DNA of 64,000 nt from an uncultured Candidatus Saccharibacteria bacterium (GCA_964630055.1 CAZVRA010000001.1:174483-238482), one strand, 5' to 3'. Positions 6,095 through 45,068 are shown, numbered from the stretch's first letter. Numbers and translations: made by a program. The notes: a model not told the origin generated them from the letters alone.

Positions 6095-6099
6095 GGTTG

Positions 6100-7104: not shown

Positions 7105-7215
7105 CTACCCGACCTCCGTACCATTAACTTTAATACTTGTTTCTGTGGACTTGATATTTTCGCTATTATAGCATATCATTGTACTATATACAACCCCTGA
7201 CAGAGAAGGAAAACT

Positions 7216-8433: not shown

Positions 8434-8472
8434 ATAGACTTAAGTGGGTGAGCTAGTTTATAATAATATCCA

Positions 8473-10167: not shown

Positions 10168-10248
10168 TGATAGTAGGCGGGATATCCCACAAATTATGCT
10201 CTAAAACCTTTCAAGCCATAAGAGTAAACCAATACCACAGTATAAAAT

Positions 10249-12262: not shown

Positions 12263-12301
12263 CTTTGCTATGTTTAACTTTTAAGTTAAGCTAATAATAA
12301 C

Positions 12302-28358: not shown

Positions 28359-28433
28359 GGCCTCATCGTCTAACGGTTAGGACACCAGGTTTTCATCCTG
28401 GCAATCGGGGTTCGATTCCCCGTGAGGTCACCA
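28359..28433 (+). tRNA. tRNA-Glu (anticodon TTC), CCA encoded
   Basis: Cloverleaf folded by hand. Acceptor stem 7 bp with one G-T pair, D-stem 4 bp, anticodon stem CCAGG/CCTGG, loop TTTTCAT, T-arm CGGGGTTCGATTCCCCG, discriminator A then CCA. Confidence 0.85.
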
Positions 28434-30126
28434 TAAGGTCTTTATGACCGGCCATCAAGTCTAGCAGCGAATTCACCCCTGTAAAAAGGGGTGTTTTCGT
28501 GTTTCCAGTTTTTAAATCTTCGTAAGTTGGCATTTTGTTGAAAAGTGCTCGGAATAACAGCGATTTTTTAACCTGTGACCCCTGTTTTAACAGTAGTTCA
28601 TCGAGGTTTTCCAGGAAATATTGGACTCTGGTTATCGCACGCTCAATTTTTTGGTCCTTTTCGTCTTCTGTACCAGCGACTTTTTTGGCCTCCAGCGCCA
28701 GTACTTGTTTTTCTATACGCTCCAGATCCTGCTCTAAATATGTCAGTGCTGTTCGGTTTGTTAGGACTTTGAGTTTGTTAATAACCATCTCTGCCTCGGT
28801 ACGTAATGCAGCTATTCGGTCATCTGTGTTCTGTATTTCTTCCAAGGCCTCTTCGCGGTGTTTCTCGTACAGTTTTCTAACCAGCGCCATAACGTTCTCT
28901 ACGTGCTCCTTGGGTACAGTGAACTGTTTTATAAACGCATCGACACTGTCCTCAAGCTCGTTTTTCGACACCCTAAAGTAGTGGCCGTGGTTACTGCAGT
29001 GGTAGGCTGGGTAATACTTACCGTTACGACCTTTTGATGCACTGCCCAGCAGGGGTCGCTCACACTCAGGACACAAAACAAAGCGTCTGAACGCGAATTC
29101 ATCCGACTTCTTGCCACGATTTATGACATTCTGTGGAGCTTTGGCCTTGGAGATGACATAATCTCCTTGCTCGTCCACTGCAATAATTTTTTTGCCACGA
29201 TTAGCCTTATTGAATAGAGATATGCTGACCAGGCTATCGAAGGCACTTTTTATAGGTTTGCCATCAGTCCACTTCTCACAAAGTATCCCAGCATATAAGG
29301 GGTTATTGAGCAGTTTATGCATAGCTTTAATGGTAAGGGGATCACCACCTATATGCCTGACTATTTTTGTCTTGTCGTGTTTGTCACGAATGTTCCGAGT
29401 GCGCGTCTTGAAGCCCAGGTTGTTTAGTTTGTCCACAATTTGCTGGTCAGTTAGGTAGTTCTCGGCACGCATTGTAAACATCTTTGTTATAAACTTCGCC
29501 TCATCTGGATGTGGTCTGAGCACCGTTCGTTTGCCGTGCTGCGTATCTACTTTTTCACTAGTAAAACCATAGGGCGATTGGCGCATCCAATAACCAAGTT
29601 GGGTGTAGCGTATTTCTGCACCTATGACTCGGCTCAATATGTCTCTGAGCTCATCCTTAGACCGCTCAGCCTCCAGTATCTCCGACTTCTTGGTGGGAGA
29701 ATACACGCTCCAGTTGTACTCAAAGCCCAAGTGGTCTAGGGTATTTACCTTCTGGTTACTTATGACTCCATAGATGTCTACCAGCGATACGCCGGCACGC
29801 TCCAATTGCAGTTTGAGCGGGTTATACGTATCCGAGCCGCCACGCGTGAACCTGTCGATTGATTTGATGATAAATAGGTTTATACCGTTCTTTGGGTTCT
29901 TGCAGTAATCTATAGCCTGCTGTATGGGTTGCTGTTCTTTGCTGGCCGACTCCAGGAACACGAAATACTGCTTAATGGTAATGCCGCGGCTTTCAGCAAA
30001 ACGTTCTATCTGCTCACGTTGGGCCTCGGGCGAGTCTCCATCGGTGCCTTGTTTGGTGGTTGAAACTCGGATTGCCGCTACCGCGTTTACGTTAGCCTTC
30101 TGCAACATGCCCAGCCTCCAGTTCAT
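28393..30126 (-). CDS. Large serine recombinase (integrase); the last 13 codons lie inside tRNA-Glu
   Basis: N-terminal resolvase catalytic motif AIRVSTTKQ...SPEAQ. About 577 aa with a Cys-rich zinc-ribbon segment (CPECERP...CSNHGH) and a C-terminal coiled coil. The C-terminal ...MVTSRGIEPRLPG* is the reverse translation of the tRNA T-arm and acceptor region. Confidence 0.8.
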   Translation of the reverse strand: MNWRLGMLQKANVNAVAAIRVSTTKQGTDGDSPEAQREQIERFAESRGITIKQYFVFLESASKEQQPIQQAIDYCKNPKNGINLFIIKSIDRFTRGGSDTYNPLKLQLERAGVSLVDIYGVISNQKVNTLDHLGFEYNWSVYSPTKKSEILEAERSKDELRDILSRVIGAEIRYTQLGYWMRQSPYGFTSEKVDTQHGKRTVLRPHPDEAKFITKMFTMRAENYLTDQQIVDKLNNLGFKTRTRNIRDKHDKTKIVRHIGGDPLTIKAMHKLLNNPLYAGILCEKWTDGKPIKSAFDSLVSISLFNKANRGKKIIAVDEQGDYVISKAKAPQNVINRGKKSDEFAFRRFVLCPECERPLLGSASKGRNGKYYPAYHCSNHGHYFRVSKNELEDSVDAFIKQFTVPKEHVENVMALVRKLYEKHREEALEEIQNTDDRIAALRTEAEMVINKLKVLTNRTALTYLEQDLERIEKQVLALEAKKVAGTEDEKDQKIERAITRVQYFLENLDELLLKQGSQVKKSLLFRALFNKMPTYEDLKTGNTKTPLFTGVNSLLDLMAGHKDLMVTSRGIEPRLPG

Positions 30127-30358: not shown

Positions 30359-31099
30359 TTGTTTTACTGTTCTCTCTTTATATACTACGTAGAGAGTATG
30401 AGTGGAAGAAGACTAAATAAGAAACAAACTGACCTACTCGCTATTGTGTGTAAGTTTAGATATGTCACGACAGATAATGTAGCCAAACAAAAAAGTATAA
30501 CTAGTAATGCAGCTTACAGTGCCTTAGAGATTCTACATAGTAATGGTTATCTGGGTAAAATTCATAAAAAGAGCTATCGGTTACAGAACAAATCAGCTCG
30601 TTATTATTTGGATCCCAAGGCCATTAAATATATCAAACAGGCTATGCCAGATATTGACCCAGAAAGCCTACAAAACCGCGCAAGGGACAGGCAGAAGTCA
30701 GAAGACTTCATAGACCAGCAGGTGGCCATACACGCGGCCTACATCGCCCTGCAGGGCAAGTATGGGGCTAAGGCAGCTATTATGACCGGTGCCGAGATGC
30801 AGAGCATGGAGGGCATTATTAAGCCGCTGCCAAGCCTATACATAAAACCTGCGGGCAAGAAACATTTCTTTGTCGAGCTGACTGACGGACAGCACCTGTT
30901 TATTGTTAAAAAGCGCATTAGAAAATACATAGATAATCACGAAGCCGGTGAATGGGATTGGGAACACTACCCGGATGTCCATATTGTTCGCAGCTCCAAG
31001 GCCGATAGACACAAGTTAGAGGCCTATGTGGAAGAAAAAATGGACGATGCTTACCTGGATAATGATGATTTTTCTTTTAAGATGTTAGATGAGTTGTAG
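30359..31099 (+). CDS. Replication-relaxation-family-like winged-helix protein (hypothetical)
   Basis: KKQTDLLAIVCKFRYVTTDNV and AAYSALEILHSNGYLGKIHKKSYRLQNKSARYYL fit the pattern of the replication-relaxation family found on plasmids and ICEs. The similarity is weak. Confidence 0.35.
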   Translation: MFYCSLFIYYVESMSGRRLNKKQTDLLAIVCKFRYVTTDNVAKQKSITSNAAYSALEILHSNGYLGKIHKKSYRLQNKSARYYLDPKAIKYIKQAMPDIDPESLQNRARDRQKSEDFIDQQVAIHAAYIALQGKYGAKAAIMTGAEMQSMEGIIKPLPSLYIKPAGKKHFFVELTDGQHLFIVKKRIRKYIDNHEAGEWDWEHYPDVHIVRSSKADRHKLEAYVEEKMDDAYLDNDDFSFKMLDEL

Positions 31100-31867: not shown

Positions 31868-32365
31868 ATGGGCGTTAGATATTCGTTTGACGACTTCTCT
31901 ACAAAAGGACACGGCGTTATTGAGTACGCCGATCCGCATTATTACGAAGACGGCCAGAAACCTAAGCGCCGCACTAAATCCAAATCAAAGTTCGCTACTC
32001 GCTGGCCCGGTCCAGCACCGATGAAGTTTAAGGCTTCAAAGAGTAAGGCCGAATCAAAATTATTAGCACAGGCAGAGGCGCAGAAAATCTTTAAGCGGCG
32101 TTATCCAGGCCAGAAGCCGAAAAAGGGTCAGATTAAAGAAATTATGCGCGAACTGCAAGCGAAACCTCAAAAGCAAAAGGTCAAAAAGACCAAAACAGGT
32201 AGCATAACCAGTGTCAAAGTGAAAAAGCCCAACCCTAACCAGAAGATTGATGAGCTGACACTAGCAGTCTTTAAGCGGCGTTACCCTGGACAACAACCCC
32301 AAGCTGGACAGATCCAAGAAATCAAACAAGAGGTTATTAACGCAAGAAACAAATTGGGCGTATAA
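31868..32365 (+). CDS. Lys-rich basic protein with an internal duplicated motif (probably nucleic-acid binding)
   Basis: Two copies of (I/V)FKRRYPGQ-P--GQI-EI. A high K/R/Q content. Confidence 0.35.
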   Translation: MGVRYSFDDFSTKGHGVIEYADPHYYEDGQKPKRRTKSKSKFATRWPGPAPMKFKASKSKAESKLLAQAEAQKIFKRRYPGQKPKKGQIKEIMRELQAKPQKQKVKKTKTGSITSVKVKKPNPNQKIDELTLAVFKRRYPGQQPQAGQIQEIKQEVINARNKLGV

Positions 32366-32486: not shown

Positions 32487-33407
32487 ATGACAGTAAAGCA
32501 GCGCCTTAATGCTATTCAGAAAGCCTCTGGTTGGTCACAAGAACAGCTAGCATCCAAGCTAGGGGTTAGCTTTGCTACGCTCAACGCCTGGATAAACGAA
32601 CGCTCAGAACCACGCACCAAAGCTGAGCAGAACATAGAGCGTTTATACCTGGATATTGTTGGCGTAGACGCAGTAGATGCCGAGGTGCTTAAGAAGTCTA
32701 AGCAAGCAGCCCTGAAACTAAAAGCCAGTGCCAAAACAATCGCCAAAAATAAAGAACAACTTGACGCACTGACTTTGCACCTGACGTACCACACCAATAC
32801 CATTGAGGGCAGTACCATGACCCTGTCGGACGTTGAAGAGGTACTGTTTGACCACAAGGTACTAAGTAACCGTACCGCCATAGAGCAAGCTGAGGCACGT
32901 AATCACCAAGCGACACTGTATTGGCTACTAGACGAACTAGCCAGCAAGGGCAAAGACTTCGTTATAGATGAGCAACTTATTTTAGGTATCCACCTGCGTC
33001 TTATGAACGGCATTATTGGTACTGCCGGACAATACCGCACGCACTCAGTACGGATCATGGGTGCGAACGTGCCGCTCGTAAACTGGCAAAAAGTACCAGA
33101 ACGAGTAAAAGAGCTGGTAGGACACATAGCTAATCAATCTGACGATACTATTGCTGACATAGCCAAGATTCATGCGGAGTTTGAACAGATTCACCCATTC
33201 GCCGACGGCAACGGCCGTACCGGGCGGCTTATTATGCTAGCACAAGCACTAAAAGCCGGCATACTACCACCACTGGTAGTCAAGGAGCGCAAATATGCTT
33301 ATTACAAATACCTGGAGCTGGCGCAGACCAAACGGGATTTTTCGCCACTGGAGCTATTCGTGGCTGAAAGCATTGAGTTCTCTGGCGAGCTATTCGCTGG
33401 CCCATAG
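32487..33407 (+). CDS. Fic/Doc-family protein with an N-terminal XRE-type HTH
   Basis: Fic motif HPFADGNGRTGR. N-terminal QEQLASKLGVSFATLNAWINERSEP is a helix-turn-helix. Confidence 0.75.
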   Translation: MTVKQRLNAIQKASGWSQEQLASKLGVSFATLNAWINERSEPRTKAEQNIERLYLDIVGVDAVDAEVLKKSKQAALKLKASAKTIAKNKEQLDALTLHLTYHTNTIEGSTMTLSDVEEVLFDHKVLSNRTAIEQAEARNHQATLYWLLDELASKGKDFVIDEQLILGIHLRLMNGIIGTAGQYRTHSVRIMGANVPLVNWQKVPERVKELVGHIANQSDDTIADIAKIHAEFEQIHPFADGNGRTGRLIMLAQALKAGILPPLVVKERKYAYYKYLELAQTKRDFSPLELFVAESIEFSGELFAGP

Positions 33408-33461: not shown

Positions 33462-33696
33462 TTTCAAATCCTGTTTCTGCCAGAAACGGAAGTTGGTTAC
33501 ATGTGCAGTTTTGGACTTATGTTGAATAGTTCTCAGTATATGGACCACGCCCAACCACTAAAGGTGTCTGGGGCTCAATAATATCGTAGCTGGTATTGCG
33601 TATGTAGGTTCATAACATAAGTTTTTTGACCGGTGTTAGATTTCTAATGATTGGTATTAACAGAGGTCAAGAATATACAAAACAGATGTAAAAAAG

Positions 33697-33702
33697 TATA
33701 AT
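33697..33702 (+). promoter_or_regulatory. Candidate -10 box (TATAAT) for the 33723-43211 operon
   Basis: Perfect TATAAT 21 nt upstream of the ATG. A weak -35 (tataca) lies 17 bp upstream. An AGGA RBS lies 8 nt before the ATG. Confidence 0.25.
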
Positions 33703-33722: not shown

Positions 33723-36311
33723 ATGTCCATAGTAATAGACGATATCCGCACTGATTTTCGTGAGTTTTGGAATCTTCCTATTGTTAAGGGCGGCGTGAAT
33801 TATAAGAAATCCTACTTTGATGAACTAAACGCATCCTTGCTATTTGAGAGGCTGGCTGAATCATCCACGTCAGATGATCTGGCCATTGTGCTCCCTCAAG
33901 ACTCGACAACACTACCACTGGTAATAATAGAGAGCCTGCTATCGCTATTCAAATACGATTTAATGAGTTCTAGTGGGTCACTAGACAACCTAGAGCCTGA
34001 AGAATCGGTAGGCCTAATGCGTGATCGTACGATGACACCTGGCATTTACAAAGGCACCGAGTATAGGGATGGCAAGAAGTTCTATCGAGTTTGGGATATT
34101 TCTGAAAAGGGTCATGTGCTAATACCTGAGGAGAGAAAATGGAGGATACAGCCGTATAACACAGAAATCTCAGCTAAGCGCAAGCTGACGACTGAAGTAC
34201 GCGGAAAAGTTTTAGAGGAACTGGCAGGAGTGGAAGCTGGGGGTCTGTTTGCATATCAGAATACAAAAGGGCTACTAGTCACATCTAACAAAGGTAAGCT
34301 CAAGGACGACATACAGGAAATATCCTTGGGTGGTGACCCTATAGAATCTATATTCCCAATAGCAGACTATTCAGATGTAGAAAACTATAAACCTTTGCTT
34401 ACAGACAGCCTACGAAGAGACTTTGTGCTTGGCTTGGTCTCTTATGCCGACACAGCGGTTGATATAGCCCTACGAGATCCAAAATATAGGCTCTTAATTA
34501 TAGAAGGTGCAGCTAAGGTACGCTCTGCGTATGGCAGTATAGAGCGTCTCAATGCAGATAATAATCCACGTAAAATAATCTGCGTCCTAAATAGTTCAGA
34601 TGAAGAAGAAATAAGTACACTTTCCCGTATGGGCTTCCGTTGCTGGGTGTGGAAGAGAGATGACTTCAAGCGCATGCACATTGACGATACGCTCGATAGT
34701 GAATTGTCCGGTAACAATTTTGAACTACACGACTCAATCATTAGCGCATTGTCTGAATCCAATTCCGTTACTCACACAATTGATGGTAGCGAAGAACTTG
34801 ATGGGCTATTCACCGTGCTATTCCAGAGCATACGTAAAATTGCTAAAGCCACGCCCGTGAATGAAGACGCCGGTATTATCATCCGAAGGCTATACGCATA
34901 CTTAAAATTCTTTATGCAGCTACCTGTGACCGTAAAGGAGTATGAGCAGTATTTGTTTCTTAACCAGCGCACATTACTTACTGATCAAATTGATGAACTC
35001 GCAGCCAGGATGCAAGCTGGGTACGGTGTTATATTCCCGCGCGATATACAGCAGGACTGCACAAAAATAATAGAAACAATAAAAAGCATCTACTCTTACC
35101 TTGAGCAGAGTAATCCGAGGAAAAATCAATTAATGCAGCTCCTGGGTGACAAGACGCATAAAAAGACAACGATAGTCTGCTCACGTTCCGAGTTCGCCGA
35201 AATACTACGGGAACAAAAGTCCATATCCCAAAACACTACTATTATCAGTGCTAACGAGATAAAGTGGGTTCCAAGCGACAGGGTCATAGTTTGCGGCCAC
35301 TTTACTAAACTCTTTGTGTCAAAGACTTTTCTAGCACCTTTCAAAAGCTTGGAGTTCCAGCTGTATAAAGATGAAAAACGTGCGTATGAGTATGTGCTTG
35401 CAAGGCACCCAGCCTCCCCACGCAGTAGGATAGACACAAGCTTACGCAAACAATACATACCGGAACAGGATCAAGTAGTCGATCCTAGTGCTGTCACCAA
35501 AGATAACTCCACGGGCGATGATCTCGAGAATCTTATTAAGTCTGTGAATGAGCGTTTTGGCGAGACCACAGATTTTAGCGGCACATTCTCTAGCGGTTAC
35601 AGACCCTCCGCTGATTATGTGGATGCCAGGAGAATCATATTTGATAACGAATCGTTCACATATTTGAACTCCGGTCACCAAGTCAACAGAATAGACCGTA
35701 TTAAGAACGAGATCGAACGTTGTTCTATTGGTGAGCTTGAGACTGGTGATGAGCTAATTTTTACACATAACTCAAGAGATCTTTTCGATGACTTAATGAA
35801 TAGTATGAAGGAAGCTGACACGTATAAGCTACTCGAGCAAGAGTCTTCAGTATGGTGGAGGGCACTCAGGGACTACGCAAGGGACAACAATATGGATGAG
35901 GATAAGCTTGCAGAAAAACTTGAAGATCTTGGCTGTAAACGACATCCCTTTACCATTAAGCAATGGACTAACGGCAAGATGATAAGTCCGACCCATATTT
36001 CCGAAACGCTTACTGCCATAGCATCACTAACTGGGGACAAAAGACTTGAGGGCGACCATGCCTCTATTATTGCCGCCTGTAAGACGCTTTTCGCTCTTCA
36101 TATCCAGACCGGACGACTGCTCATTAGAAGAATAGTTAGCTCAGCCGTGACCACAGAAGAGGACGAGGAAATCGATGAAGAAACCAAAGGTAGAATAGAT
36201 GCTTATGCGAAGCAGGCAATACTTGTGAATGTCGCGTATATATCTGATAACACTGCATCTGTACCTGACAATGCTATTGGACAGCTTTTTACGGCACAGG
36301 GGCAGCTATGA
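33723..36311 (+). CDS. Large protein of unknown function (862 aa), first gene of the defence-like operon (possible DrmE analogue)
   Basis: Long ORF. Its stop overlaps the next gene's ATG (ATGA). No motif recognised. Confidence 0.45.
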   Translation: MSIVIDDIRTDFREFWNLPIVKGGVNYKKSYFDELNASLLFERLAESSTSDDLAIVLPQDSTTLPLVIIESLLSLFKYDLMSSSGSLDNLEPEESVGLMRDRTMTPGIYKGTEYRDGKKFYRVWDISEKGHVLIPEERKWRIQPYNTEISAKRKLTTEVRGKVLEELAGVEAGGLFAYQNTKGLLVTSNKGKLKDDIQEISLGGDPIESIFPIADYSDVENYKPLLTDSLRRDFVLGLVSYADTAVDIALRDPKYRLLIIEGAAKVRSAYGSIERLNADNNPRKIICVLNSSDEEEISTLSRMGFRCWVWKRDDFKRMHIDDTLDSELSGNNFELHDSIISALSESNSVTHTIDGSEELDGLFTVLFQSIRKIAKATPVNEDAGIIIRRLYAYLKFFMQLPVTVKEYEQYLFLNQRTLLTDQIDELAARMQAGYGVIFPRDIQQDCTKIIETIKSIYSYLEQSNPRKNQLMQLLGDKTHKKTTIVCSRSEFAEILREQKSISQNTTIISANEIKWVPSDRVIVCGHFTKLFVSKTFLAPFKSLEFQLYKDEKRAYEYVLARHPASPRSRIDTSLRKQYIPEQDQVVDPSAVTKDNSTGDDLENLIKSVNERFGETTDFSGTFSSGYRPSADYVDARRIIFDNESFTYLNSGHQVNRIDRIKNEIERCSIGELETGDELIFTHNSRDLFDDLMNSMKEADTYKLLEQESSVWWRALRDYARDNNMDEDKLAEKLEDLGCKRHPFTIKQWTNGKMISPTHISETLTAIASLTGDKRLEGDHASIIAACKTLFALHIQTGRLLIRRIVSSAVTTEEDEEIDEETKGRIDAYAKQAILVNVAYISDNTASVPDNAIGQLFTAQGQL

Positions 36312-38029
36312 GACTTATACCGAATTACATAGATGAAAAGAACTCTAGTAACGCCGAGAAAAAACTGTTTAAGCTGTTTTCTAAGACAGACAGGCTGAAT
36401 GACTGGGTATGTCTACATTCATTGGGTGTTAGCCAACATATAAACAAACGAGAAGGTGAAATAGACTTTTTATTGATCGGCCCAGCGGGTATCTTTGCTT
36501 TAGAGGTGAAGGGCGGACGAGTTGAGAGACGCAATGGCATCTGGTACTTCACCGACAGATTTAGCAGGGTTAGCAAAAAGCACGAATCTCCATTCACTCA
36601 AGCAAAAACTGCGCTTTACTCAATCAGATCTGATGTTACAGAGCGATTCGGTAAAACATTATACAGTTCGGTATTCGGATATGGGGCTATGTTTCCAGAT
36701 ATTCAATTTGGAGTAGAGTCCCCCGAGTGGCATGCTGATATGGTTTTTGACCATAATGATATGCAGTCAGATATTGCTGACTATGTAGAACGATTGAGTG
36801 AGTATTGGACGTTACAGCAGCGGTCTAGGAGACAGTTAACTCGCCGAGAGATCAGTGAGGTCGTTAATTATCTACGCGGTGACTTTGAGATCATTAGACC
36901 ACTCTCTGAAACTATAGAGGAAACCGAGGACTCTATTATACGACTCACTGAAGAACAATATACTTGCTTGGACGCAATGGAACTCAACCCAAGAACCATT
37001 TTCTTTGGCGCTGCAGGAACCGGTAAGACACTGTTGGCAGTAGAGAAGGCTAGGCGAAATAAAATCAAAGGAATCCCTACACTATTCCTATGTTTCAATC
37101 GCTTACTAGCGGATTATGTTAATGATTTACTCTCGCGTGAACCTGGTAGCGGAGTGCAAGTATATTCACTGCATAGTTTTCTAAATAAGTTGATTAAACA
37201 GGCCGATCTTGAAGGTGGCTTAAACACTGGCGTATCTAGTCAGAGTGAGTTATATGAACGTATCTATCCCCATCTAGCATTACAAATAAAGGAGTTGCCG
37301 AAGTTTGAAGAACTCATCATAGACGAGGCTCAGGACGTGTTGTCGGAGCAGTACCTAAAGGTTCTGGATCGTCTAGTCGACGGTGGTGTTGATCATGGTA
37401 AGTGGCTTATGTGTATGGATCCAGAAAACCAAGACATATATCAAAAAGCTGACAGTAAGATGCTGGGCGATGTAAAAAGCCTCGCTTCATCATATGTGCT
37501 GACGATAAACTGTAGAAACACCAAACCTATCGCTATTCAGACTGAACTCATCACCGGTATATCAGCCGGTGCTACAACTAGGATCGAAGGAGTACCCGTT
37601 AATTACATATGGTACGAAGACCAGCAAGACCAAGCCAGACAACTTAGCGACAAGATAAATGTCATGCTCAAAGAAGGTGTAGAGCCTGACGATATTACTA
37701 TACTGTCGCACAAAAGTGGAACCCCATCCTTAGCAGGTAGTGGCAGGTTGCGTATCGATGCACCTACTCATCTCATAGATACAAGGAGCGGTTCCATAAA
37801 GATTAACGGGCATATAGGATACTGCACCATATCATCATTCAAAGGATTGGAAAGCAAGGTCATTGTCATTACTGATACGGCTGAGCTAGAAGGAGATGCG
37901 TACAGGTTGCTAAACTATGTGGGCTTCACGAGGGCACGCGCCCTACTTGTCGTGTGCATGAACAAAGAGCTGAAGAAGCAGTACAAAGCAAAAATTGCTA
38001 AACTTACTATAGCCGACGGTAAACTATGA
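36308..38029 (+). CDS. NERD-domain plus UvrD/PcrA-like SF1 helicase
   Basis: N-terminal ...HSLGVSQHINKREGEIDFLLIGPAGIFALEVKGG matches the NERD pattern. Walker A FFGAAGTGKT, Walker B LIIDEAQD. C-terminal ...LNYVGFTRARALLVV is UvrD_C-like. Both junctions with its neighbours are ATGA overlaps. Confidence 0.6.
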   Translation: MRLIPNYIDEKNSSNAEKKLFKLFSKTDRLNDWVCLHSLGVSQHINKREGEIDFLLIGPAGIFALEVKGGRVERRNGIWYFTDRFSRVSKKHESPFTQAKTALYSIRSDVTERFGKTLYSSVFGYGAMFPDIQFGVESPEWHADMVFDHNDMQSDIADYVERLSEYWTLQQRSRRQLTRREISEVVNYLRGDFEIIRPLSETIEETEDSIIRLTEEQYTCLDAMELNPRTIFFGAAGTGKTLLAVEKARRNKIKGIPTLFLCFNRLLADYVNDLLSREPGSGVQVYSLHSFLNKLIKQADLEGGLNTGVSSQSELYERIYPHLALQIKELPKFEELIIDEAQDVLSEQYLKVLDRLVDGGVDHGKWLMCMDPENQDIYQKADSKMLGDVKSLASSYVLTINCRNTKPIAIQTELITGISAGATTRIEGVPVNYIWYEDQQDQARQLSDKINVMLKEGVEPDDITILSHKSGTPSLAGSGRLRIDAPTHLIDTRSGSIKINGHIGYCTISSFKGLESKVIVITDTAELEGDAYRLLNYVGFTRARALLVVCMNKELKKQYKAKIAKLTIADGKL

Positions 38030-41000
38030 GCGATATTAAGACAAAAGATTATATTGAGTTCCGAACCCAAATCCTGGACTTTGTGCGAAGAGATCTTCAG
38101 GGTCCTTATGAAGAATCCGAACTTATAGACGAGTCTCCAGCGTCCAAGTACTCCACGGGGATAATTTTCCCTCAGATTTCTCTAGAAGTGCCAGACGACG
38201 GCTCTCTTGATACGCGCGAACAAGACGACGAGGAAGTCGGTGCCATTGAGCAGGCGTCTTCCTTCTATCCATCGGCAACCGGCCTTAGCTTCGCGGTAAG
38301 TAATGGTGTAAATACGATAAATATAAAGCTTCGCTATGGTAAGTATAGGAAGATCACTGCGAAAGACTACGGTGATGTGGTGGTCAAAGTGTCCGGTTTT
38401 GAAGCAACATATCAAGGAAACCTTACAGTACAGAGCTTCTTTGATTTAGGCGACGGGTACCTTACTTTAAAGCGACCTATGGAAATGCACGACAGGGACA
38501 CACTGCTATCTATGGCCGAGGACAATCAGCAGTTCAAAGATGTTATTTATAGAGCCTTTAAGTTATGTAAATCTGGGTGGATTCGAACTCAGCACGAACA
38601 AGATATAAAACTCAGCCCAGATAGCGATTTAAAAGAACAGATTATTGAGGGCGAAACACTAAAGTTGGTTCTGGCAGTAAAAAATATACCAAAATCACAG
38701 AAGAAAATCTGTACTATCTCTGTAGTCAACACTTCGAAAACAACCAAACCTCAAAGCGACTCAGATAAGGCATACTACCAACTACATCTAGCCTTAACGT
38801 TAGATAACGGCAGACCGTTTGAAGATTTAAACGACAAATCTTTTGAGGAATCATGGTTTGACGATTTCGAGGAGGAGTCTCTTCATCTCTTATACCATAA
38901 GAGGAAACTCTATGGTGTGGGGCATGGTATCTCCGTGGACTGGAAAACCAATACGGAGTCAGATGATGCCGTGGAAGTTTATACCACAACTCTGCCAAGC
39001 TATATTGTCCCGCAAATGGAATTTACCCTTGCGGGTTCTAGCCAGAAACCAGATCTTTCCATTGCGACATATGCATATAAAGAGAGAGGCGAGATTATCG
39101 ATAACCTGCGGCTTCTCACCAGTAGCTACAGTGAGTGGATTGAAGCGATTGAGCAAGAATCTAAAGCTCTGCCAAGCAATTTACAGAATATAGCCGCCAA
39201 GCACGTAGAAAAGTGCAAGGACTCACTGACAAGAATGCTAAATGGTATAGAGATTGTGTCTAAGAATGACGATGTGTTTAGAGCATTTCAGCATGCAAAT
39301 GAAGCGATGTTAATGCAAAGAAGTCATACACGACTTCAAAACACAAAATCATTTGCTGATGAGAATGTATCCATGCCAGAAAGCTATAGAAATGAGAAAG
39401 ATGAATGGCGACCATTTCAGATTGCATTCATCATCATGAATTTGGTCTCCATGTCAGACACCGATTCATCAGAGAGGGACATAGTAGACTTAATTTGGTT
39501 CCCTACGGGTGGCGGAAAGACGGAGGCATATCTCGGGCTAACTGCGTTCACCATATTTTTTAGGCGTATCAAATACAAAGACAGAGCTGGAGGCACCACT
39601 GTTATTATGCGCTATACCCTCCGACTGCTTACGTCACAACAGTTTCAGCGAGCATGCACACTTATATGTGCATGCGAAAATATCAGAAAGTCTACGAGTC
39701 TATACGGAGACGAGCCCATAACTGTTGGGCTTTGGCTAGGTAGCGCATCAACTCCTAATACGCTTGAGGATGCAAAATATCGTGTTGGCGAACTCCACAG
39801 GGGAGGTAGTCAGGCAGAAAATCCGTTCCAAGTTATTGATTGCCCGTGGTGTGGCACCCACATGACGAAGGTTGATAGAAGAGGCATCTTTTGCTACGAA
39901 ATTAAGAGTAGGCCTAAACAATTCTATATGTGGTGTCCCAATGGTAACTGCACCTTTTCGGATAAACAAGGCGGGCTTCCTATAATTGTAGTGGATGATG
40001 ATATCTATAACAGACCGCCAACTCTATTGTTTGGAACCGTAGATAAGTTTGCTATGTTGCCGTGGAAGAAGGAGGCATCCTCTCTATTCGCCCTGAATAA
40101 TGGTAACCAGAATATATCCCCCTCGCTTATTATTCAGGATGAGTTACATCTTATATCTGGGTCTCTGGGTACGGTTGTAGGGCTTTATGAAACAGCTATA
40201 GATATCTTATGTTCCGCCAAGAGCATTAAGCCAAAAATTATAGCTTCAACGGCAACTATTAGAAAGGCACAGGAGCAATGCAAATCACTATATGCAAGGG
40301 ACGTTGCACAGTTTCCATCGCCTGGCATAGATGCCTCTGACTCATTCTTTGCCAGAGAAGCCCCAGTGGACGACAACACGCCGGGACGTTTATACGTCGG
40401 TGTAATGCCATCAGGTAAAACATCTACTACCATGCAGGTACGCCTCATGGCTGACGTTATTCAGGGGGTAGAAATATTAGATACAGATGACGCAGTGAAA
40501 GATACGTACTGGACGCAGGTCGTTTATTGTAACAGCATTAGGGAGTTGGGTTCATCAAAAAGCATAGTCTTTGACGACGTAAAGGAATACTCGAAGTCAC
40601 TGGCCAAGTATTATGGCAAAAAACCAAGATTCTATGGTGACCGTAACGTTCAAGAACTGACATCCAGAATTAGTGCCGAAAATATACCAGAGATACTTAG
40701 GATGCTTGAGAATAGTTATCCAAGTAAAGATGCTGTGGATGTTTTGCTGGCAACGAATATGATATCGGTCGGCGTGGACATAAACCGTTTTGGCATCATG
40801 ACAGTTCTTGGTCAACCCAAAACTACCTCGGAGTACATACAGGCGTCTAGTCGTGTCGGTCGTAAAAACCCGGGGCTAGTACTTACTCTGTATAGTCCAG
40901 TGAAAAGCCGTGACCGATCACACTATGAGCAATTCTTGAGATATCACCAGTCTCTTTATAGATTTGTTGAGCCTACGAGCGTTACCCCATTCTCCGCACC

Positions 41001-41391
41001 CGTGCGTGACAAGGCACTACATGCGGTAGTTATCATACTCATAAGACATTACCTCGGCCTACATGATAGTGAGGACTTAGAGAGTATAGATATAAATTCG
41101 CCGGAAGTCAGACAAGTAGTTGGGCTTATTCTTGATAGAACCAGGATAGTGGATTCTGTGGAGGCAAACAGTACGGATGAAGAGATTAACAAGATTTTGG
41201 CCAGAATAGACGAATTGAAGCGAGAGACTGCCGGTATAACCTATGGAACACAATCGCACGTAAAATCTGCAACGGATAAGCTTCCATTAATGCGACCTGC
41301 GCAAGACAAAAAAGGCCTTGGGGAGTACCCCACACTACAGTCGATGAGAAGTACTGACTCTGAATGCTATGTAACTTTGGATCACTCGTAA
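38026..41391 (+). CDS. Large SF2 DEAH-box helicase with an inserted Zn ribbon (DrmA-like)
   Basis: Motif I FPTGGGKTEAY, motif II IIQDELHLISG, motif III IIASTAT, motif VI QASSRVGRKNPG. The Zn-ribbon insert is CPWCGTH...CPNGNC. 1121 aa. Confidence 0.6.
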   Translation: MSDIKTKDYIEFRTQILDFVRRDLQGPYEESELIDESPASKYSTGIIFPQISLEVPDDGSLDTREQDDEEVGAIEQASSFYPSATGLSFAVSNGVNTINIKLRYGKYRKITAKDYGDVVVKVSGFEATYQGNLTVQSFFDLGDGYLTLKRPMEMHDRDTLLSMAEDNQQFKDVIYRAFKLCKSGWIRTQHEQDIKLSPDSDLKEQIIEGETLKLVLAVKNIPKSQKKICTISVVNTSKTTKPQSDSDKAYYQLHLALTLDNGRPFEDLNDKSFEESWFDDFEEESLHLLYHKRKLYGVGHGISVDWKTNTESDDAVEVYTTTLPSYIVPQMEFTLAGSSQKPDLSIATYAYKERGEIIDNLRLLTSSYSEWIEAIEQESKALPSNLQNIAAKHVEKCKDSLTRMLNGIEIVSKNDDVFRAFQHANEAMLMQRSHTRLQNTKSFADENVSMPESYRNEKDEWRPFQIAFIIMNLVSMSDTDSSERDIVDLIWFPTGGGKTEAYLGLTAFTIFFRRIKYKDRAGGTTVIMRYTLRLLTSQQFQRACTLICACENIRKSTSLYGDEPITVGLWLGSASTPNTLEDAKYRVGELHRGGSQAENPFQVIDCPWCGTHMTKVDRRGIFCYEIKSRPKQFYMWCPNGNCTFSDKQGGLPIIVVDDDIYNRPPTLLFGTVDKFAMLPWKKEASSLFALNNGNQNISPSLIIQDELHLISGSLGTVVGLYETAIDILCSAKSIKPKIIASTATIRKAQEQCKSLYARDVAQFPSPGIDASDSFFAREAPVDDNTPGRLYVGVMPSGKTSTTMQVRLMADVIQGVEILDTDDAVKDTYWTQVVYCNSIRELGSSKSIVFDDVKEYSKSLAKYYGKKPRFYGDRNVQELTSRISAENIPEILRMLENSYPSKDAVDVLLATNMISVGVDINRFGIMTVLGQPKTTSEYIQASSRVGRKNPGLVLTLYSPVKSRDRSHYEQFLRYHQSLYRFVEPTSVTPFSAPVRDKALHAVVIILIRHYLGLHDSEDLESIDINSPEVRQVVGLILDRTRIVDSVEANSTDEEINKILARIDELKRETAGITYGTQSHVKSATDKLPLMRPAQDKKGLGEYPTLQSMRSTDSECYVTLDHS

Positions 41392-43211
41392 TGGCGTACA
41401 GCTCTGACAAAAAACCAACTCTAAGACGTAGTCAAACCATAACCACATTTGGCGTGGGCGCAATAGTAGACTTGCCCGATGCATCTGCGATGGTATGTGG
41501 AATTGAGAAATGGAATACTAAAGGTTGCATACCCCTGCACGATGCTCGGCTAGAAACAAAACTTAATGCCAGCCATTTTTATATGCCTCCTAGCACAGAG
41601 GAGTCGGCAGAGGGTGTTATAGCTGTAAGATTCCCGAGATATTTGAGATGCCGCAAATGTAACTACATTAGAGATATAAATGTATGGCGTGATAGAGCCG
41701 CTGCCGGTAATTTCTACAAAGACTTTGACGTACAACCTTACTGTGACATAGATAAGATACAGCTCATACCTTCCAGGTTTGTTGTTGCCTGTCGTAGGGG
41801 TCATATAGACGATTTTCCTTATGAACAGTGGGTTCATGGTGATGCCTTATGTAACAACCCATCTCTAAAATACATCGAAACAGCTAGCACAGTTGGGCTT
41901 GGCGGTATCCTAATAAAATGTGACTGTGGGAAGAGCCAAAGCATGGCAGCTTCATTTAATAAGGATAAGTTGGCTAACATAGCCTCTTGTAGAGGCGCAA
42001 AACCTTGGGTTATGGAATGGAGTTCGCAGTGTGGGGAGCAGCTGGTTGCGCTACAGCGTGGTGGCACTAACGTACACTTCCCCATACTCCGTAGTTCAAT
42101 ACTCATCCCACCCTACAGTTCTGAGGGGTTGAGGAAGAAGATAGTATCATCAGATTTATGGGGCGTATATGAATCCCAAAGCGGAGGCATAGAGATAGAT
42201 ACTTTGATACCTGCAATTGCCCAGGAAATAGGCGAATCCACTGAAGATGTGCGGACAGAAATTGGTTCTATGCTCAATACAGAAGAACAAGACGATAAGG
42301 CGATACCTGAAGAAGAGTATAGATTTGAAGAGTATGAAGCGTTTACCGGTAATGTGACGATAGACAAACAATACGAAAAAGATTTTCTTATTGAGAAAGT
42401 TCCGACAGAGGGATACAAGATACCACTGATAAAGAACGTGGTTCTTGCTAAGCGTCTGAGGGAGGTCAGGGTGCAGGTTGGGTTTTCGCGCATTAAACCT
42501 CCTACATCTCACGATGAGACGGGGCAAGCTATCCCAGACGAAGAAAAGATTGATGCTGTACCAGTATCACAAAACCGAAGGATTCGTTGGTATCCAGGCT
42601 ATGAGGTTCGTGGGGAAGGTATATTCTTGGAGTTTGATACAAAGGAGTTAAAATCGTGGGCTGCAACAGCCCCAGTGCAGAAACGCCTAAAAGATATGCT
42701 AGACAGGAGCAGCAAGCACCCAGACTCTTTTGGCGTATTAGATACCCTAACTCCAGAGTATCTTGCCCTACACACACTATCTCATTTGCTCATAAAACAA
42801 CTTAGTTTTGAGTGTGGCTACTCGAGTTCTGCACTTAGAGAGCGAATATACGCATCATCGCCACGTAACAGTAGTGTGAAACCTATGTCTGCAATTCTGA
42901 TATACACAGCCGAGGGGGACTCTGACGGTACTCTTGGTGGACTCGTGCGTCAGGGTAAAGCTGATTTATTTAATGACACTTTCAGAAAGGCCATACACCA
43001 AGCCGAATGGTGTGCATCAGATCCATTGTGCATTGAGTCCGATGGTCAGGGTTATCTAGGTATGAACCTTGCAGCATGTCATGCATGCACTATGTTACCC
43101 GAAACCTCATGCGAGATGCTGAACAGATATCTAGACCGAGGTACTATCGTTGGCACCCTAACTTACCCCAATACTGGGCTGTTTTCTGGAATGACACGTG
43201 GCGCAAAGTGA
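41391..43211 (+). CDS. DUF1998-like protein with Cys clusters (DrmB-like); start taken at the TAATG overlap (the ORF track gives 41364)
   Basis: C-terminal WCASDPLC...LAACHACTMLPETSCEM four-Cys cluster as in DUF1998 / MrfB-like domains. A second cluster in the middle, CRKCNY...CDC. Genetically linked to the upstream helicase. Confidence 0.45.
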   Translation: MAYSSDKKPTLRRSQTITTFGVGAIVDLPDASAMVCGIEKWNTKGCIPLHDARLETKLNASHFYMPPSTEESAEGVIAVRFPRYLRCRKCNYIRDINVWRDRAAAGNFYKDFDVQPYCDIDKIQLIPSRFVVACRRGHIDDFPYEQWVHGDALCNNPSLKYIETASTVGLGGILIKCDCGKSQSMAASFNKDKLANIASCRGAKPWVMEWSSQCGEQLVALQRGGTNVHFPILRSSILIPPYSSEGLRKKIVSSDLWGVYESQSGGIEIDTLIPAIAQEIGESTEDVRTEIGSMLNTEEQDDKAIPEEEYRFEEYEAFTGNVTIDKQYEKDFLIEKVPTEGYKIPLIKNVVLAKRLREVRVQVGFSRIKPPTSHDETGQAIPDEEKIDAVPVSQNRRIRWYPGYEVRGEGIFLEFDTKELKSWAATAPVQKRLKDMLDRSSKHPDSFGVLDTLTPEYLALHTLSHLLIKQLSFECGYSSSALRERIYASSPRNSSVKPMSAILIYTAEGDSDGTLGGLVRQGKADLFNDTFRKAIHQAEWCASDPLCIESDGQGYLGMNLAACHACTMLPETSCEMLNRYLDRGTIVGTLTYPNTGLFSGMTRGAK

Positions 43212-44197
43212 GAGAATGATTCTTCCTCGCTAATTGTAGGAACTCGCGGAATCTGCGTCATCAGTGCTTTAGCCATTTCGTTCACTAGCGGCACACATAC
43301 AGAATTGCCGAACTGCCTATAAGCAGGCGTTTTAGTATCTGGGAGGATGAAGGTTTCAGGGAAGCCCATCAACCTGGCGCACTCCCTAGGTGTAAGCATG
43401 CGAGGATTTTTACCCTTCTGCTCTATGAGGTTCTCCCTACCATCCTTACCGTAACGTGACGTGAGTGTACTTGCAATACCGTTGATATCAACAATATGAT
43501 GTCTAAATCCATTGCCTTTTAGTCTATTACGTTCAGAGCGGGCTTTATGCGACTCCCAAAGTCGATCACTAATCGTGTATTGTTCGTCAGGCTTATCTTC
43601 AAGGATATCTTTTAGCCTATGCTTTCTCTGCTTTACCATAGGGAATTTGAAAACAATATCATCACGCATAGCTACCATGAATATTCTTTTTCTTCTGTGG
43701 GGTACCATTAGGGATGCATCAAACACCTGTGAGTTAAACGAATATCCAAGTTTTGTTAGCTCGTCTTTTACTATGGCGAGACTTCTACCCCCGTCATGCC
43801 GTTCGAAGTTGGCTACATTTTCAAGAAATATAACTTTTGGTTTGTGGTACTTAGCTATCCTAACTATCTCGTAGAATAGGTTGCCCTGTTTTTCATCCTG
43901 GAAACCATGTTTTCTTCCAAGTCCTGAGCGTGCCGACACCCCAGCCCTTGAGAATGGCTGACAAGGAAACCCAGCACATAGTATGTCGTGCGAAGGTATC
44001 TCGCTGGCTTTTACCTGCCTTATGTCGCGTGTATCTATTTCATTGCCGTGGTTGCGGCGGTAAGTAGCGACAGCAGAACTATCCACTTCGTTTGTGTACA
44101 CACAGTTAAAACCAGCCTGTTCAAATCCCAGTCTAATACCGCCTATGCCGGCGAATAGATCTATAAAGGTCAGCTTTTGGTCGTCGTCCTGTGTCAT
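43163..44197 (-). CDS. DNA cytosine-5 methyltransferase
   Basis: Motif I FIDLFAGIGG, motif IV GFPCQPFS, motif VI FLENV, motif VIII PHRRKRIF, motif X QFGNSV. Converges on the DUF1998 gene and overlaps it by 49 nt. Confidence 0.85.
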   Translation of the reverse strand: MTQDDDQKLTFIDLFAGIGGIRLGFEQAGFNCVYTNEVDSSAVATYRRNHGNEIDTRDIRQVKASEIPSHDILCAGFPCQPFSRAGVSARSGLGRKHGFQDEKQGNLFYEIVRIAKYHKPKVIFLENVANFERHDGGRSLAIVKDELTKLGYSFNSQVFDASLMVPHRRKRIFMVAMRDDIVFKFPMVKQRKHRLKDILEDKPDEQYTISDRLWESHKARSERNRLKGNGFRHHIVDINGIASTLTSRYGKDGRENLIEQKGKNPRMLTPRECARLMGFPETFILPDTKTPAYRQFGNSVCVPLVNEMAKALMTQIPRVPTISEEESFSHFAPRVIPENSPVLG

Positions 44198-44297: not shown

Positions 44298-45068
44298 ATG
44301 AAGCAAGGGCAACGGGCTTGGACGCGTGAAGAACTGATTCTGGTAGTAAACCTATATCTAAAACTACCCTTTGGGAGACTACATAAGCTTAATCCGGAAG
44401 TTGTCGAACTTGCTAGCCTCCTCAACAGAACAACCAATTCAATTGCGCTCAAGTTAGTTAATTTTGCCAGCCTTGACCCCAGTATCAAGGCTCGTGGTTT
44501 CAGCGGTATGAAAAACGCAAGCAAGCTTGATGTCCAGGTATGGCATGAATTCTTCGATAACTGGGAATCCCTTCCTTTCGAAAGCGAAGAACTTCTCGCT
44601 AAACATAGACACACTACTGTTGAGGAGCTGAATCACATCTCGGAGGAAGAATTGCCGAAAGAAGGAATTGATAGAGAACGAATTGTTAAGACTAGGGTCA
44701 ACCAATCACTCTTCAGAAGTTCAATTCTAGCCGCCTACAACAATACATGCTGTATCACCGGTATTAACAAGCCTGAGCTGTTAGTGGCTGGGCATATACG
44801 ACCGTGGGGCATTGATGAAAAAAACAGATTAAATCCGCGAAACGGTTTGGCAATTAACGCACTTCACGACAGGGCATTTGAGTCTGGGCTTCTTACGGTA
44901 ACTCCAGACTATAGAGTACATATATCCTCCGCACTCCTTAAACAGAAAGATGAATTTATTAAAGAATACTTTGGCAGGTACGATAATCAACCAATTATTC
45001 TTCCATCAAGATTCTTACCAGACATCAAGTTCCTTGAATACCATAACAAAGAGAGGTTTATTGCCTAA
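44298..45068 (+). CDS. HNH endonuclease-family protein (HNH_2-like putative restriction endonuclease)
   Basis: CCITGINKPELLVAGHIRPW...NGLAINALHDRAFESGLLTV is the HNH core. Divergent from the C5-MTase. Confidence 0.6.
   Translation: MKQGQRAWTREELILVVNLYLKLPFGRLHKLNPEVVELASLLNRTTNSIALKLVNFASLDPSIKARGFSGMKNASKLDVQVWHEFFDNWESLPFESEELLAKHRHTTVEELNHISEEELPKEGIDRERIVKTRVNQSLFRSSILAAYNNTCCITGINKPELLVAGHIRPWGIDEKNRLNPRNGLAINALHDRAFESGLLTVTPDYRVHISSALLKQKDEFIKEYFGRYDNQPIILPSRFLPDIKFLEYHNKERFIA

Follow-up and report, generated by a model that had tools for sequence, protein, structure and literature searches.

A predicted NERD nuclease–SF1 helicase fusion as a co-inherited partner of DrmA and DrmB in a class-2-like DISARM operon without DrmC

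Introduction

DISARM is a widespread anti-phage system with an unresolved killing step. The DrmAB complex of class 1 systems is an autoinhibited helicase complex that is activated by unmethylated single-stranded 5' overhangs; the DrmC protein is dispensable and does not co-purify with DrmAB, many annotated DISARM operons lack it, and the identity of the DISARM nuclease has been termed a mystery, with the recruitment of some nuclease after activation being proposed (PMC9142583). Systems built around helicases of the YprA family typically pair the helicase with a nuclease, either fused or adjacent, and a survey of this family speaks just of "many uncharacterized DISARM-like classes" (PMC12458937). 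Here we describe a DISARM-like operon in a 64,000-nucleotide (nt) stretch of DNA from an uncultured Candidatus Saccharibacteria bacterium (GCA_964630055.1, CAZVRA010000001.1:174483-238482; hereafter the window, with all positions counted from its first letter). The second gene of this operon encodes a protein of 573 amino acids (aa) in which a predicted NERD nuclease domain is fused to a superfamily 1 (SF1) helicase motor, and which we refer to as the NERD-helicase.

The closest described analogue is ArmD, the product of the fourth gene of ARMADA type II, in which a RelE-like domain is fused to a GajB/UvrD-like helicase; ArmD is essential and its Walker A lysine is required (10.1101/2025.09.15.676423). 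Nhi and AbiO, which serve in phage defence, are single polypeptides that join a nuclease to an SF1 helicase. Among NERD proteins, ZwsA requires its NERD catalytic residues (E/D/E/K) for defence and cleaves RNA in vitro, and HEC-02B belongs to a system validated for defence. In HamAB, the role of sensor falls to the helicase and that of effector to the nuclease. The searchable literature (DISARM combined with NERD, UvrD or DUF1998) holds no description of a NERD-helicase as a DISARM component, although the original DISARM paper (Ofir et al. 2018) may mention one.

Results

The NERD-helicase gene lies in a putative class-2-type DISARM operon

The operon runs in the order drmE, NERD-helicase, drmA and drmB, with the gene for the C5 cytosine methyltransferase DrmMII convergent to it (Table 1). 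DrmA exceeds the cut-off of the NCBIfam model DISARM_DrmAS (NF038325; 985.7 bits against 950) and matches PADLOC DrmA with an E-value of 2.9e-233. DrmB scores 483 bits with DrmB_fam (NF038324; cut-off 240), matches Pfam MZB and is found by PADLOC DrmB (E 6e-74), while DrmMII matches Pfam DNA_methylase (E 3.7e-85) and PADLOC DrmMII (E 9e-114). The product of the first gene scores 320 bits with the NCBIfam model DrmE_fam (NF038316; cut-off 80) and matches Pfam DrmE_C (E 2e-13) and PADLOC DrmE (E 7e-10). We consider it a divergent DrmE, because it passes this broad model and falls below the threshold of the equivalog model DISARM_DrmE (43 bits against a cut-off of 250). The genes expected of class 2 DISARM were thereby found in four cases out of five (DrmA, a separate DrmB after drmA, DrmE by the broad model only, and DrmMII), the fifth, DrmC, being missing. 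On its gene content the operon reads as a class-2-type DISARM with two departures, the added NERD-helicase and the lack of the PLD nuclease DrmC.

The NERD-helicase gene is joined to its neighbours by 4-nt ATGA overlaps on both sides, at the junction with drmE (...cagctATGAgac at 36308) and at that with drmA (...aaactATGAgcg at 38026). A preliminary description made from the sequence alone had placed the gene between an unknown first gene and a DrmA-like helicase with such overlaps; the overlaps stand, and the first gene is no longer unknown but a member of the DrmE family. The NERD-helicase gene also matches drmE, drmA, drmB and drmMII in composition, with a GC content of 0.43 and a GC content at third codon positions (GC3) of 0.42. 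Across all five cassette genes these values span 0.43-0.45 and 0.40-0.435, and GC3 is 0.51-0.54 in the flanking genes of the surrounding island and 0.575 in the chromosomal ppsA. The candidate operon promoter listed in Table 1 is a consensus match only, and sites of its kind are not more frequent in the region than in shuffled sequence. As listed, the drmB open reading frame (ORF) shares its first 28 nt with the end of drmA (41364..41391); the true start of drmB may be a later codon, and homologous loci show either a 4-nt overlap of the two genes or a short gap between them.

The NERD-helicase is a co-inherited partner of DrmA and DrmB

Nine close relatives of the NERD-helicase (39-57% identity) could be located on contigs. 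Seven of these lie in the same DrmE–NERD-helicase–DrmA–DrmB cassette, mostly with a C5 methylase (P0002, P0005, P0055, P0036, P0077, P0112 and P0088); P0036 was found on at least 24 contigs, and the contig carrying P0088, which has DrmE upstream, stops just after the NERD-helicase. The remaining two, which are saccharibacterial and share one syntenic site, are NERD-helicases alone. When metagenome contigs were scanned with a DrmE alignment, two loci were recovered, a number too small for an unbiased survey of DrmE operons, and in both the NERD-helicase directly follows drmE. The absence of the gene from homologous operons, which the preliminary description had named as grounds for giving up its view, is thus not what these loci show.

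The association extends well beyond the close relatives. A scan of genome contigs with the family alignment gave at least 23 loci, mostly distant, and among the matches listed (23-38% identity, selected on NERD-helicase similarity only) DrmA and DrmB adjoin the NERD-helicase in 8 of the 17 loci with informative flanks. Plasmid-borne examples come from Deinococcus gobiensis, Rhodococcus opacus, Azospirillum ramasamyi, Rhizobium (several records) and Shinella, and the NERD-helicase lies beside DrmA/DrmB in at least 9 of 99 plasmid records that hold a DrmA relative. Relatives as close as 57% and as distant as 23% in identity keep their place beside DrmA/DrmB; at least five phyla are represented, and two gene orders occur, NERD-helicase–DrmA–DrmB and DrmA–DrmB–NERD-helicase. 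The C5 methylase is conserved alongside the cassette in four loci (L024, L028, L033 and L040), with 59-63% identity, and three of these loci (L024, L028 and L040) also retain the ATGA coupling on the drmE side.

Pairwise identities of the NERD-helicase and of DrmA are correlated across 18 loci with a Mantel r of 0.87, reached by none of 5000 permutations, a value that is inflated by the shared ancestry of closely related cassettes; the corresponding figure for DrmA and DrmB is 0.92. The NERD-helicase is a co-inherited partner of DrmAB and not a chance insertion. The gene had been labelled as embedded in a defence operon, which is right as to its location and understates its behaviour as a co-inherited core partner; the suggestion that it may define a new sub-type fits the conserved four-gene cassette.

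No drmC is found in the NERD-linked loci

Pfam detects no PLD domain in the 17 neighbouring ORFs of at least 97 aa scanned between 23.2 and 53.1 kb, the four genes of the operon not being counted among them. The strict PLD motif (HxKx4D...GSxN) is absent from the whole window and from all NERD-linked loci, and a tblastn search with the canonical DrmC of a Rhodococcus ruber plasmid (locus L045) at E ≤ 1 gives no match in the window or in any NERD-linked locus. The single loose HxKx4D match in the window falls in a histidine kinase (12302..14500), which we judged to be a chance occurrence and not DrmC. The HxKxxxxD motif is absent from the NERD-helicase itself, which is not a member of the DrmC/PLD family, though it may work like DrmC.

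In six loci the NERD-helicase gene stands immediately after drmB, the slot that drmC occupies in the canonical class 1 locus L045, and in three of the loci (L005, L036 and L037) it starts only 2-13 nt after drmB. The NERD-helicase and DrmC were never found together in the loci examined. The idea that the NERD-helicase supplies the activity provided elsewhere by DrmC is compatible with the lack of a PLD gene in the window and the NERD-linked loci and with the occupied drmC slot. Because it is a conserved member of a DISARM operon without DrmC, the NERD-helicase is the best candidate for the missing cutter. The nearby HNH_2 endonuclease gene (Table 1) was also considered as the nuclease of the system and rejected as a core part, since it has a homologue in none of the homologous cassettes.

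Domain organisation of the NERD-helicase

The N-terminal region matches Pfam NERD (PF08378) with an E-value of 4.9e-10 and 40.3 bits, against a gathering score of 22.1, and the same model is matched by all 29 aligned homologues (37-57% identity). The invariant N-terminal positions in this alignment are E17, H37, H44, E51, D53, E66 and K68, among which the E...D...ExK set has the form of a PD-(D/E)xK signature; the D-13-ExK spacing is identical to that of the residues mutated in ZwsA (D567, E580 and K582). An AlphaFold model of aa 1-205, with a predicted local distance difference test score (pLDDT) of 84.6 and a predicted template modelling score of 0.83, has an alpha-beta-beta-beta-alpha-beta core. 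Nearly all matches in a fold search with the isolated domain are PD-(D/E)xK nucleases (Hjc, Bax1, RecU, Can2 and BstEII), though statistically weak (best E 0.012), and no match was found when PDB sequences were searched with the N-terminal profile.

The remainder of the protein consists of a helical linker and a compact two-lobed motor in the full-length AlphaFold model (pLDDT 84.6). In addition to the residues listed for motifs III to VI in Table 1, G234, K240 and T241 and D339, E340, Q342 and D343 are invariant in the 29 homologues. We take the motor to be of the SF1A (UvrD/Rep) type, this assignment and the motif names having been made by eye from general knowledge. Several Pfam helicase models match partially over aa 210-549 (PhoH, UvrD_C_2, SLFN-g3_helicase and AAA_19); in the window protein UvrD_C_2 reaches 24.8 bits against a cut-off of 27.4 and AAA_19 reaches 18.7 against 25.1, and UvrD-helicase or UvrD_C are matched by some homologues. 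The PADLOC helicase matches include GajB (E 1.9e-8). With the full-length model, Foldseek places human SLFN11 and SLFN14 closest, both of which combine a nuclease with an SF1 helicase, followed by UvrD (E 5.6e-13), Upf1 and Dna2; Upf1 and Dna2 are SF1B enzymes. The full-length profile finds only generic SF1 and P-loop matches among PDB sequences and no solved structure that is close in sequence. UvrD-type motors are DNA translocases, and UvrD-like motifs imply 3'-5' polarity; the motor motifs predict a DNA-dependent 3'-5' translocase.

Both halves of the protein had been anticipated. The N-terminus does show NERD similarity, above the Pfam threshold and with E17, D53, E66 and K68 invariant, and its modelled core and its structural neighbours, weak as they are, agree with a PD-(D/E)xK-like module. 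The full SF1 core is likewise borne out, as the reported strings GAAGTGKT (Walker A) and IIDEAQD are both present and motifs III to VI are invariant.

The N-terminus (MRLIPNYI...) aligns with homologues from residue 1, which indicates that the ATG start at 36308 is correct. About 1,637 clusters at 50% identity match the NERD-helicase at E ≤ 1e-30, nearly all of them about 570 aa long and matching end to end, and a protein identical to that of the window is already on record; the gene is therefore real and no chance ORF.

Partners of NERD-helicases and of DrmAB elsewhere

The association with YprA-type helicases is not limited to the split DrmA/DrmB pair, because on a Leisingera sp. S132 plasmid (L048; NZ_CP083555.1, 1554..9581) the NERD-helicase directly follows an unsplit YprA-like helicase of 2,094 aa with DEAD, Helicase_C and MZB domains; a SNF2 protein is encoded on the opposite strand at this locus. 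In Sphingomonas the NERD-helicase follows a 1,618-aa Sacsin/NOV_C protein, and in Thermomicrobium it stands alone near a type III-B CRISPR locus. Three Saccharibacteria-like contigs (L030, L031 and L042) carry, at 10001..11750, NERD-helicases 45-47% identical to the window protein with no DISARM genes within 10 kb; the genes occupy a conserved site in the order glmS, DUF1801, NERD-helicase. In a neighbour-joining tree the stand-alone L030 protein is the nearest neighbour of the DISARM-linked L029 protein (L042 was not in the tree). These stand-alone proteins are either functional alone or remnants.

SF1/UvrD-like helicases without a NERD domain also adjoin DrmA/DrmB, on plasmids of Tsukamurella (L051, 4695..6488, with a RelA/SpoT-domain protein and a C5 methylase upstream), Photobacterium (L052, 11691..13064) and Deinococcus (L034, 15738..16859), and an Azospirillum DrmAB operon likewise carries a UvrD-like helicase without NERD. 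Uncharacterised DISARM-like systems may generally include an SF1 partner. Alphaproteobacterial plasmids carry a four-gene form made up of a UvrD-like helicase (787-929 aa), a DrmA-like protein, DrmB and the NERD-helicase (L036 from Azospirillum, 4481..14000; L037 from Rhizobium, 4916..13952), in which no methylase is listed in the stretch shown; this form may be a methylation-independent relative. We considered whether DrmE is akin to the UvrD-like protein that takes its place upstream of drmA in Azospirillum, and rejected this on finding no detectable similarity. The picture that these arrangements convey is of DrmAB as a sensor core that exchanges accessory motor and nuclease modules.

The operon lies on an apparent integrative mobilisable element

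The cassette is part of an island of about 20 kb that runs from a tRNA-Glu gene to about 49.1 kb and has the appearance of an integrative mobilisable element (Table 1). It contains two large serine recombinases and a relaxase-like protein, and no convincing att-type direct repeats were found bounding it. The homologous cassettes L024, L028 and L040 also lie beside a large serine recombinase.

The HNH_2 protein encoded divergently from drmMII matches the PADLOC model HNH PDLC04132 (E 8e-93) and a type II restriction endonuclease HNH model (E 2.7e-46), with a weak partial match to a phosphorothioate-DNA restriction enzyme; about 115 aa at its N-terminus have no assignment. It could form a type II restriction-modification pair with the C5 methylase or act as a modification-dependent enzyme. 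No homologue of its gene occurs in the related cassettes, and an SRA-HNH_2 gene lies near the cassette in L040. The TraD/VirD4-like ATPase also matches mad8 of the methylation-associated defence system MADS in PADLOC (E 4.6e-20) and may serve either conjugation or defence. A 165-aa ORF without a Pfam match (31868..32365), immediately before the Fic gene, contains a 55-nt direct repeat (32088..32142 and 32268..32322; 75% identical, 180 nt spacing), which points to an internal duplication in this small protein. Elsewhere in the window, a lower-GC stretch (about 0.39) at 8-14 kb includes a 564-aa ORF (8473..10167, + strand) in which a NUDIX domain is joined, in an unusual fusion, to an AdoHcyase_NAD/2-hydroxyacid-dehydrogenase-type NAD-binding domain.

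Table 1. Features of the window. Positions are in nucleotides from the first letter of the 64,000-nt window; residue numbers refer to the NERD-helicase.
Feature	Position	Strand	Remarks
tRNA-Glu	28359..28433		abuts and slightly overlaps the 3' end of the serine recombinase gene
Large serine recombinase, first	28393..30126	-	
Replic_Relax (relaxase-like) protein	30359..31099		
HTH-Fic protein	32487..33407		
Candidate operon promoter	33674..33702	+	sigma-70-like TATACA-17-TATAAT; 10/12 consensus match; about 20 nt upstream of drmE
drmE	33723..36311	+	862 aa; first gene of the operon; NF038316, Pfam DrmE_C, PADLOC DrmE
NERD-SF1 helicase fusion gene	36308..38029	+	573 aa; ATG start
NERD / PD-(D/E)xK nuclease domain, predicted	36308..36697	+	aa 1-130; Pfam NERD at aa 15-110 (36350..36637)
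Predicted catalytic residues	36356..36358; 36464..36466; 36503..36511	+	E17; D53; E66-V-K68; invariant in 29 sequences
Helical linker, nuclease to motor	36698..36937	+	aa 131-210; conserved W167 and R190-G-D-F193
Compact SF1 (UvrD/Rep-type) helicase core	36938..38014	+	aa 211-569; from invariant columns, Pfam/PADLOC matches and Foldseek
Motif I, GAAGTGKT	37007..37030	+	aa 234-241; invariant
Motif II, IIDEAQD	37316..37336	+	aa 337-343; invariant
Motif III-like, MDPENQ		+	aa 370-375; D371 and Q375 invariant
Motif IV, NCRNT	37508..37522	+	aa 401-405; N401, R403 and N404 invariant
Motif V, KGLES	37841..37855	+	aa 512-516; K512, G513 and E515 invariant
Motif VI, YVGFTRAR	37916..37939	+	aa 537-544; Y537 and R542 invariant
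drmA	38026..41391	+	1121 aa; superfamily 2 (SF2) YprA-type helicase; NF038325, PADLOC DrmA
drmB	41364..43211	+	615 aa as listed; DUF1998/MZB protein; NF038324, Pfam MZB, PADLOC
drmMII, C5 cytosine DNA methyltransferase	43163..44197	-	convergent with drmB; Pfam DNA_methylase, PADLOC DrmMII
HNH_2 endonuclease	44298..45068	+	256 aa; divergent from drmMII
TraD/VirD4-like ATPase	45149..47524	-	791 aa; TrwB/TraD/HerA P-loop
Second serine recombinase	47632..49080		23% identical to the first

Discussion

We propose that the NERD-helicase is a dedicated ATP-driven nuclease-motor subunit or effector of a DrmC-less, class-2-like DISARM carried on an integrative mobile element, a reading that we give a probability of roughly 0.58. 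It builds on the domain architecture and intact motifs of the protein, the translational coupling of its gene, the conserved synteny, the co-divergence with DrmA and DrmB and the absence of DrmC. Beyond this, we infer a course of events that covers catalysis and its substrate, the polarity and sequence of action, and a dependence on DrmAB. DrmMII would methylate host cytosines, as its family suggests, and DrmAB would engage unmethylated foreign DNA through single-stranded regions, by extension from class 1 DrmAB (PMC9142583). The NERD-helicase would act with or after DrmAB, its SF1 motor loading on the exposed single strand and translocating along it, probably 3' to 5'. The NERD site (E17, D53 and E66-x-K68) would then cut the tracked nucleic acid, such that the invader is degraded and not merely blocked, and the NERD-helicase would take the job that is assigned to the PLD nuclease DrmC in canonical DISARM.

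Several observations weigh against this proposal. About half of the distant family members among the matches listed have no DrmAB within 10 kb, and others lie beside unrelated partners, namely the Sacsin/NOV_C protein and UG34 reverse transcriptases. Stand-alone orthologues (L030 and L042) nest in the DISARM-linked clade, so that the protein may be able to function without DrmAB; conversely, neither DrmC nor the NERD-helicase is strictly required by DrmAB, since an L. plantarum plasmid carries a DrmAB operon without either of them or any other extra gene. The structural matches of the N-terminal domain are weak, the co-divergence is inflated as noted above, and a DNA substrate is not assured, because ZwsA, the sole NERD enzyme with in vitro data, cuts RNA.

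The same contexts bear on the main alternative, an autonomous single-gene nuclease-helicase defence of the Nhi kind that is embedded in the DISARM operon and shares its regulation, perhaps with synergy, while neither depending on DrmAB nor serving it. With motor and nuclease in one protein the NERD-helicase would be self-sufficient in principle, and its weak PADLOC similarity to Nhi and AbiO favours autonomy, as do the stand-alone saccharibacterial orthologues and the many distant members without DrmAB nearby; moreover, defence genes are often nested in the same orientation in DISARM, BREX and type I restriction-modification operons (10.1101/2024.01.29.577857). An occasional guest, however, would not stay beside DrmA and DrmB over the range of identities, phyla and gene orders described above, nor would its divergence follow that of DrmA almost as closely as that of DrmB does. 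The retained ATGA coupling in L024, L028 and L040, the lack of any co-occurring DrmC and the precedent of the architecturally analogous ArmD, an essential subunit and no guest, likewise speak for a partner, and we regard autonomy as unlikely. Less likely still is a role upstream of DrmAB, in which the NERD-helicase would resect or unwind DNA ends and so make the single-stranded 5' overhangs that load and activate DrmAB, which would then block replication. The 3'-5' polarity implied by its UvrD-like motifs would suit such a task, and its gene precedes drmA in the window and in most close cassettes. Class 1 DrmAB is indeed activated by 5'-overhang single-stranded DNA and autoinhibited otherwise (PMC9142583). 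The gene order varies, however, with the NERD-helicase placed after drmB in six loci, and the polarity is read from motifs.

It seems to us very improbable that the NERD domain serves as an RNase or as a toxic effector of abortive infection, being released when DrmAB senses infection and directed at transcripts or host nucleic acids instead of invader DNA. ZwsA does cleave RNA in vitro with the same E/D/E/K residues, ArmD bears an RNase-like (RelE) domain, and the best whole-protein structural matches include the tRNA/RNA-cutting Schlafens SLFN11 and SLFN14; yet the Schlafen resemblance rests on the helicase half of the protein. The DNA methylase and the DNA helicases of the operon point to discrimination at the level of DNA, which is also what UvrD-type motors track. 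The mechanism of ARMADA, in addition, is direct and non-abortive (PMC12458937).

The locus and its relatives, at least 20 of them independent, present a DrmAB system in which a different, motor-bearing predicted nuclease is co-inherited with the core and translationally coupled to it. The arrangement also suggests that the NERD-helicase gets treated as a guest gene by annotation pipelines, in which only DrmA-E and DrmM are named. Its presence in DISARM is no surprise in kind, but it is a concrete handle on the killing step: a candidate effector that can be mutated at K240 in the motor and at D53, E66 and K68 in the nuclease.

More tentatively, and with somewhat less than even confidence, we suggest that there is a distinct, widespread and undescribed DISARM class that has the NERD-SF1 helicase, DrmA and DrmB as its core triplet and a motor-driven PD-(D/E)xK nuclease as its obligate effector, and that NERD-helicases of about 570 aa are interchangeable "effector cartridges" for large sensor proteins. 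The triplet would then be accompanied by DrmE and a C5 methylase in the lineage of the window, and by a UvrD-like protein or no methylase in others; the sensor partners of the cartridges would include split and fused YprA helicases, Sacsin/NOV_C proteins and UG34 reverse transcriptases. If this is true, DISARM gains a component whose removal should abolish DNA degradation, and the long-standing question of whether it destroys or merely blocks phage DNA becomes testable.

Comparison with known systems

DISARM and the ArmD-containing ARMADA are tied by a common design, a YprA helicase together with a nuclease-SF1 helicase fusion. Like the window protein, ArmD has an N-terminal nuclease-type domain followed by a compact GajB/UvrD-like SF1 helicase, and is likewise encoded in one operon together with an SF2 helicase of the YprA family and a DNA methylase. 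The N-terminal domains differ, that of ArmD being a RelE-like RNase and that of the window protein NERD. The partners differ as well: ArmD is found with an unsplit YprA helicase of the ARMADA/Druantia branch (BrxHII-like) and a PglX-like N6-adenine methylase, whereas the NERD-helicase is found with a split DrmA/DrmB, DrmE and a C5 methylase. By these features the NERD-helicase is an analogue of ArmD and not a member of its family.

With DrmC the NERD-helicase shares its standing as a candidate nuclease encoded with DrmA/DrmB and, in six loci, the same slot after drmB. There is no sequence similarity between the two, and the PLD HxK fold of DrmC contrasts with the PD-(D/E)xK type predicted for the window protein; the DrmC of L045 has 244 aa and no motor domain named in its annotation, whereas the NERD-helicase carries its own ATP motor. 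The best full-length profile match is RTasNERD-Hel (PADLOC PDLC03813; E 4.6e-55, aa 2-555), a protein of the same NERD and helicase architecture that is associated with the UG34 reverse transcriptase (PMC9226505). Its partner is this reverse transcriptase, while that of the window protein is DrmAB, and the scanned ORFs of the island include no reverse-transcriptase domain. The similarity to Nhi (E 5e-7) and AbiO (E 1e-5) in PADLOC is weak and limited to the part from Walker A to motif III (aa 213-410), with no homology detected between the nuclease domains; Nhi, moreover, acts alone.

AddAB/RecBCD, Dna2, Cas3 and HamAB (Hachiman) follow the same logic, in which a PD-(D/E)xK-type or related nuclease is coupled to an SF1 or SF2 motor and degrades DNA while tracking along it, and Dna2 and AddA are among the structural and sequence neighbours of the window protein. 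In comparison with these processive helicase-nucleases, the window protein has its nuclease at the N-terminus and of the NERD subtype, and a minimal helicase core that lacks the large 1B/2B inserts; neither iron-sulfur nor Chi-recognition elements were seen in it. Its relation to them is one of analogy and distant superfamily membership only. Its motifs and profile matches place the window protein in the NERD family and among the SF1 helicases.

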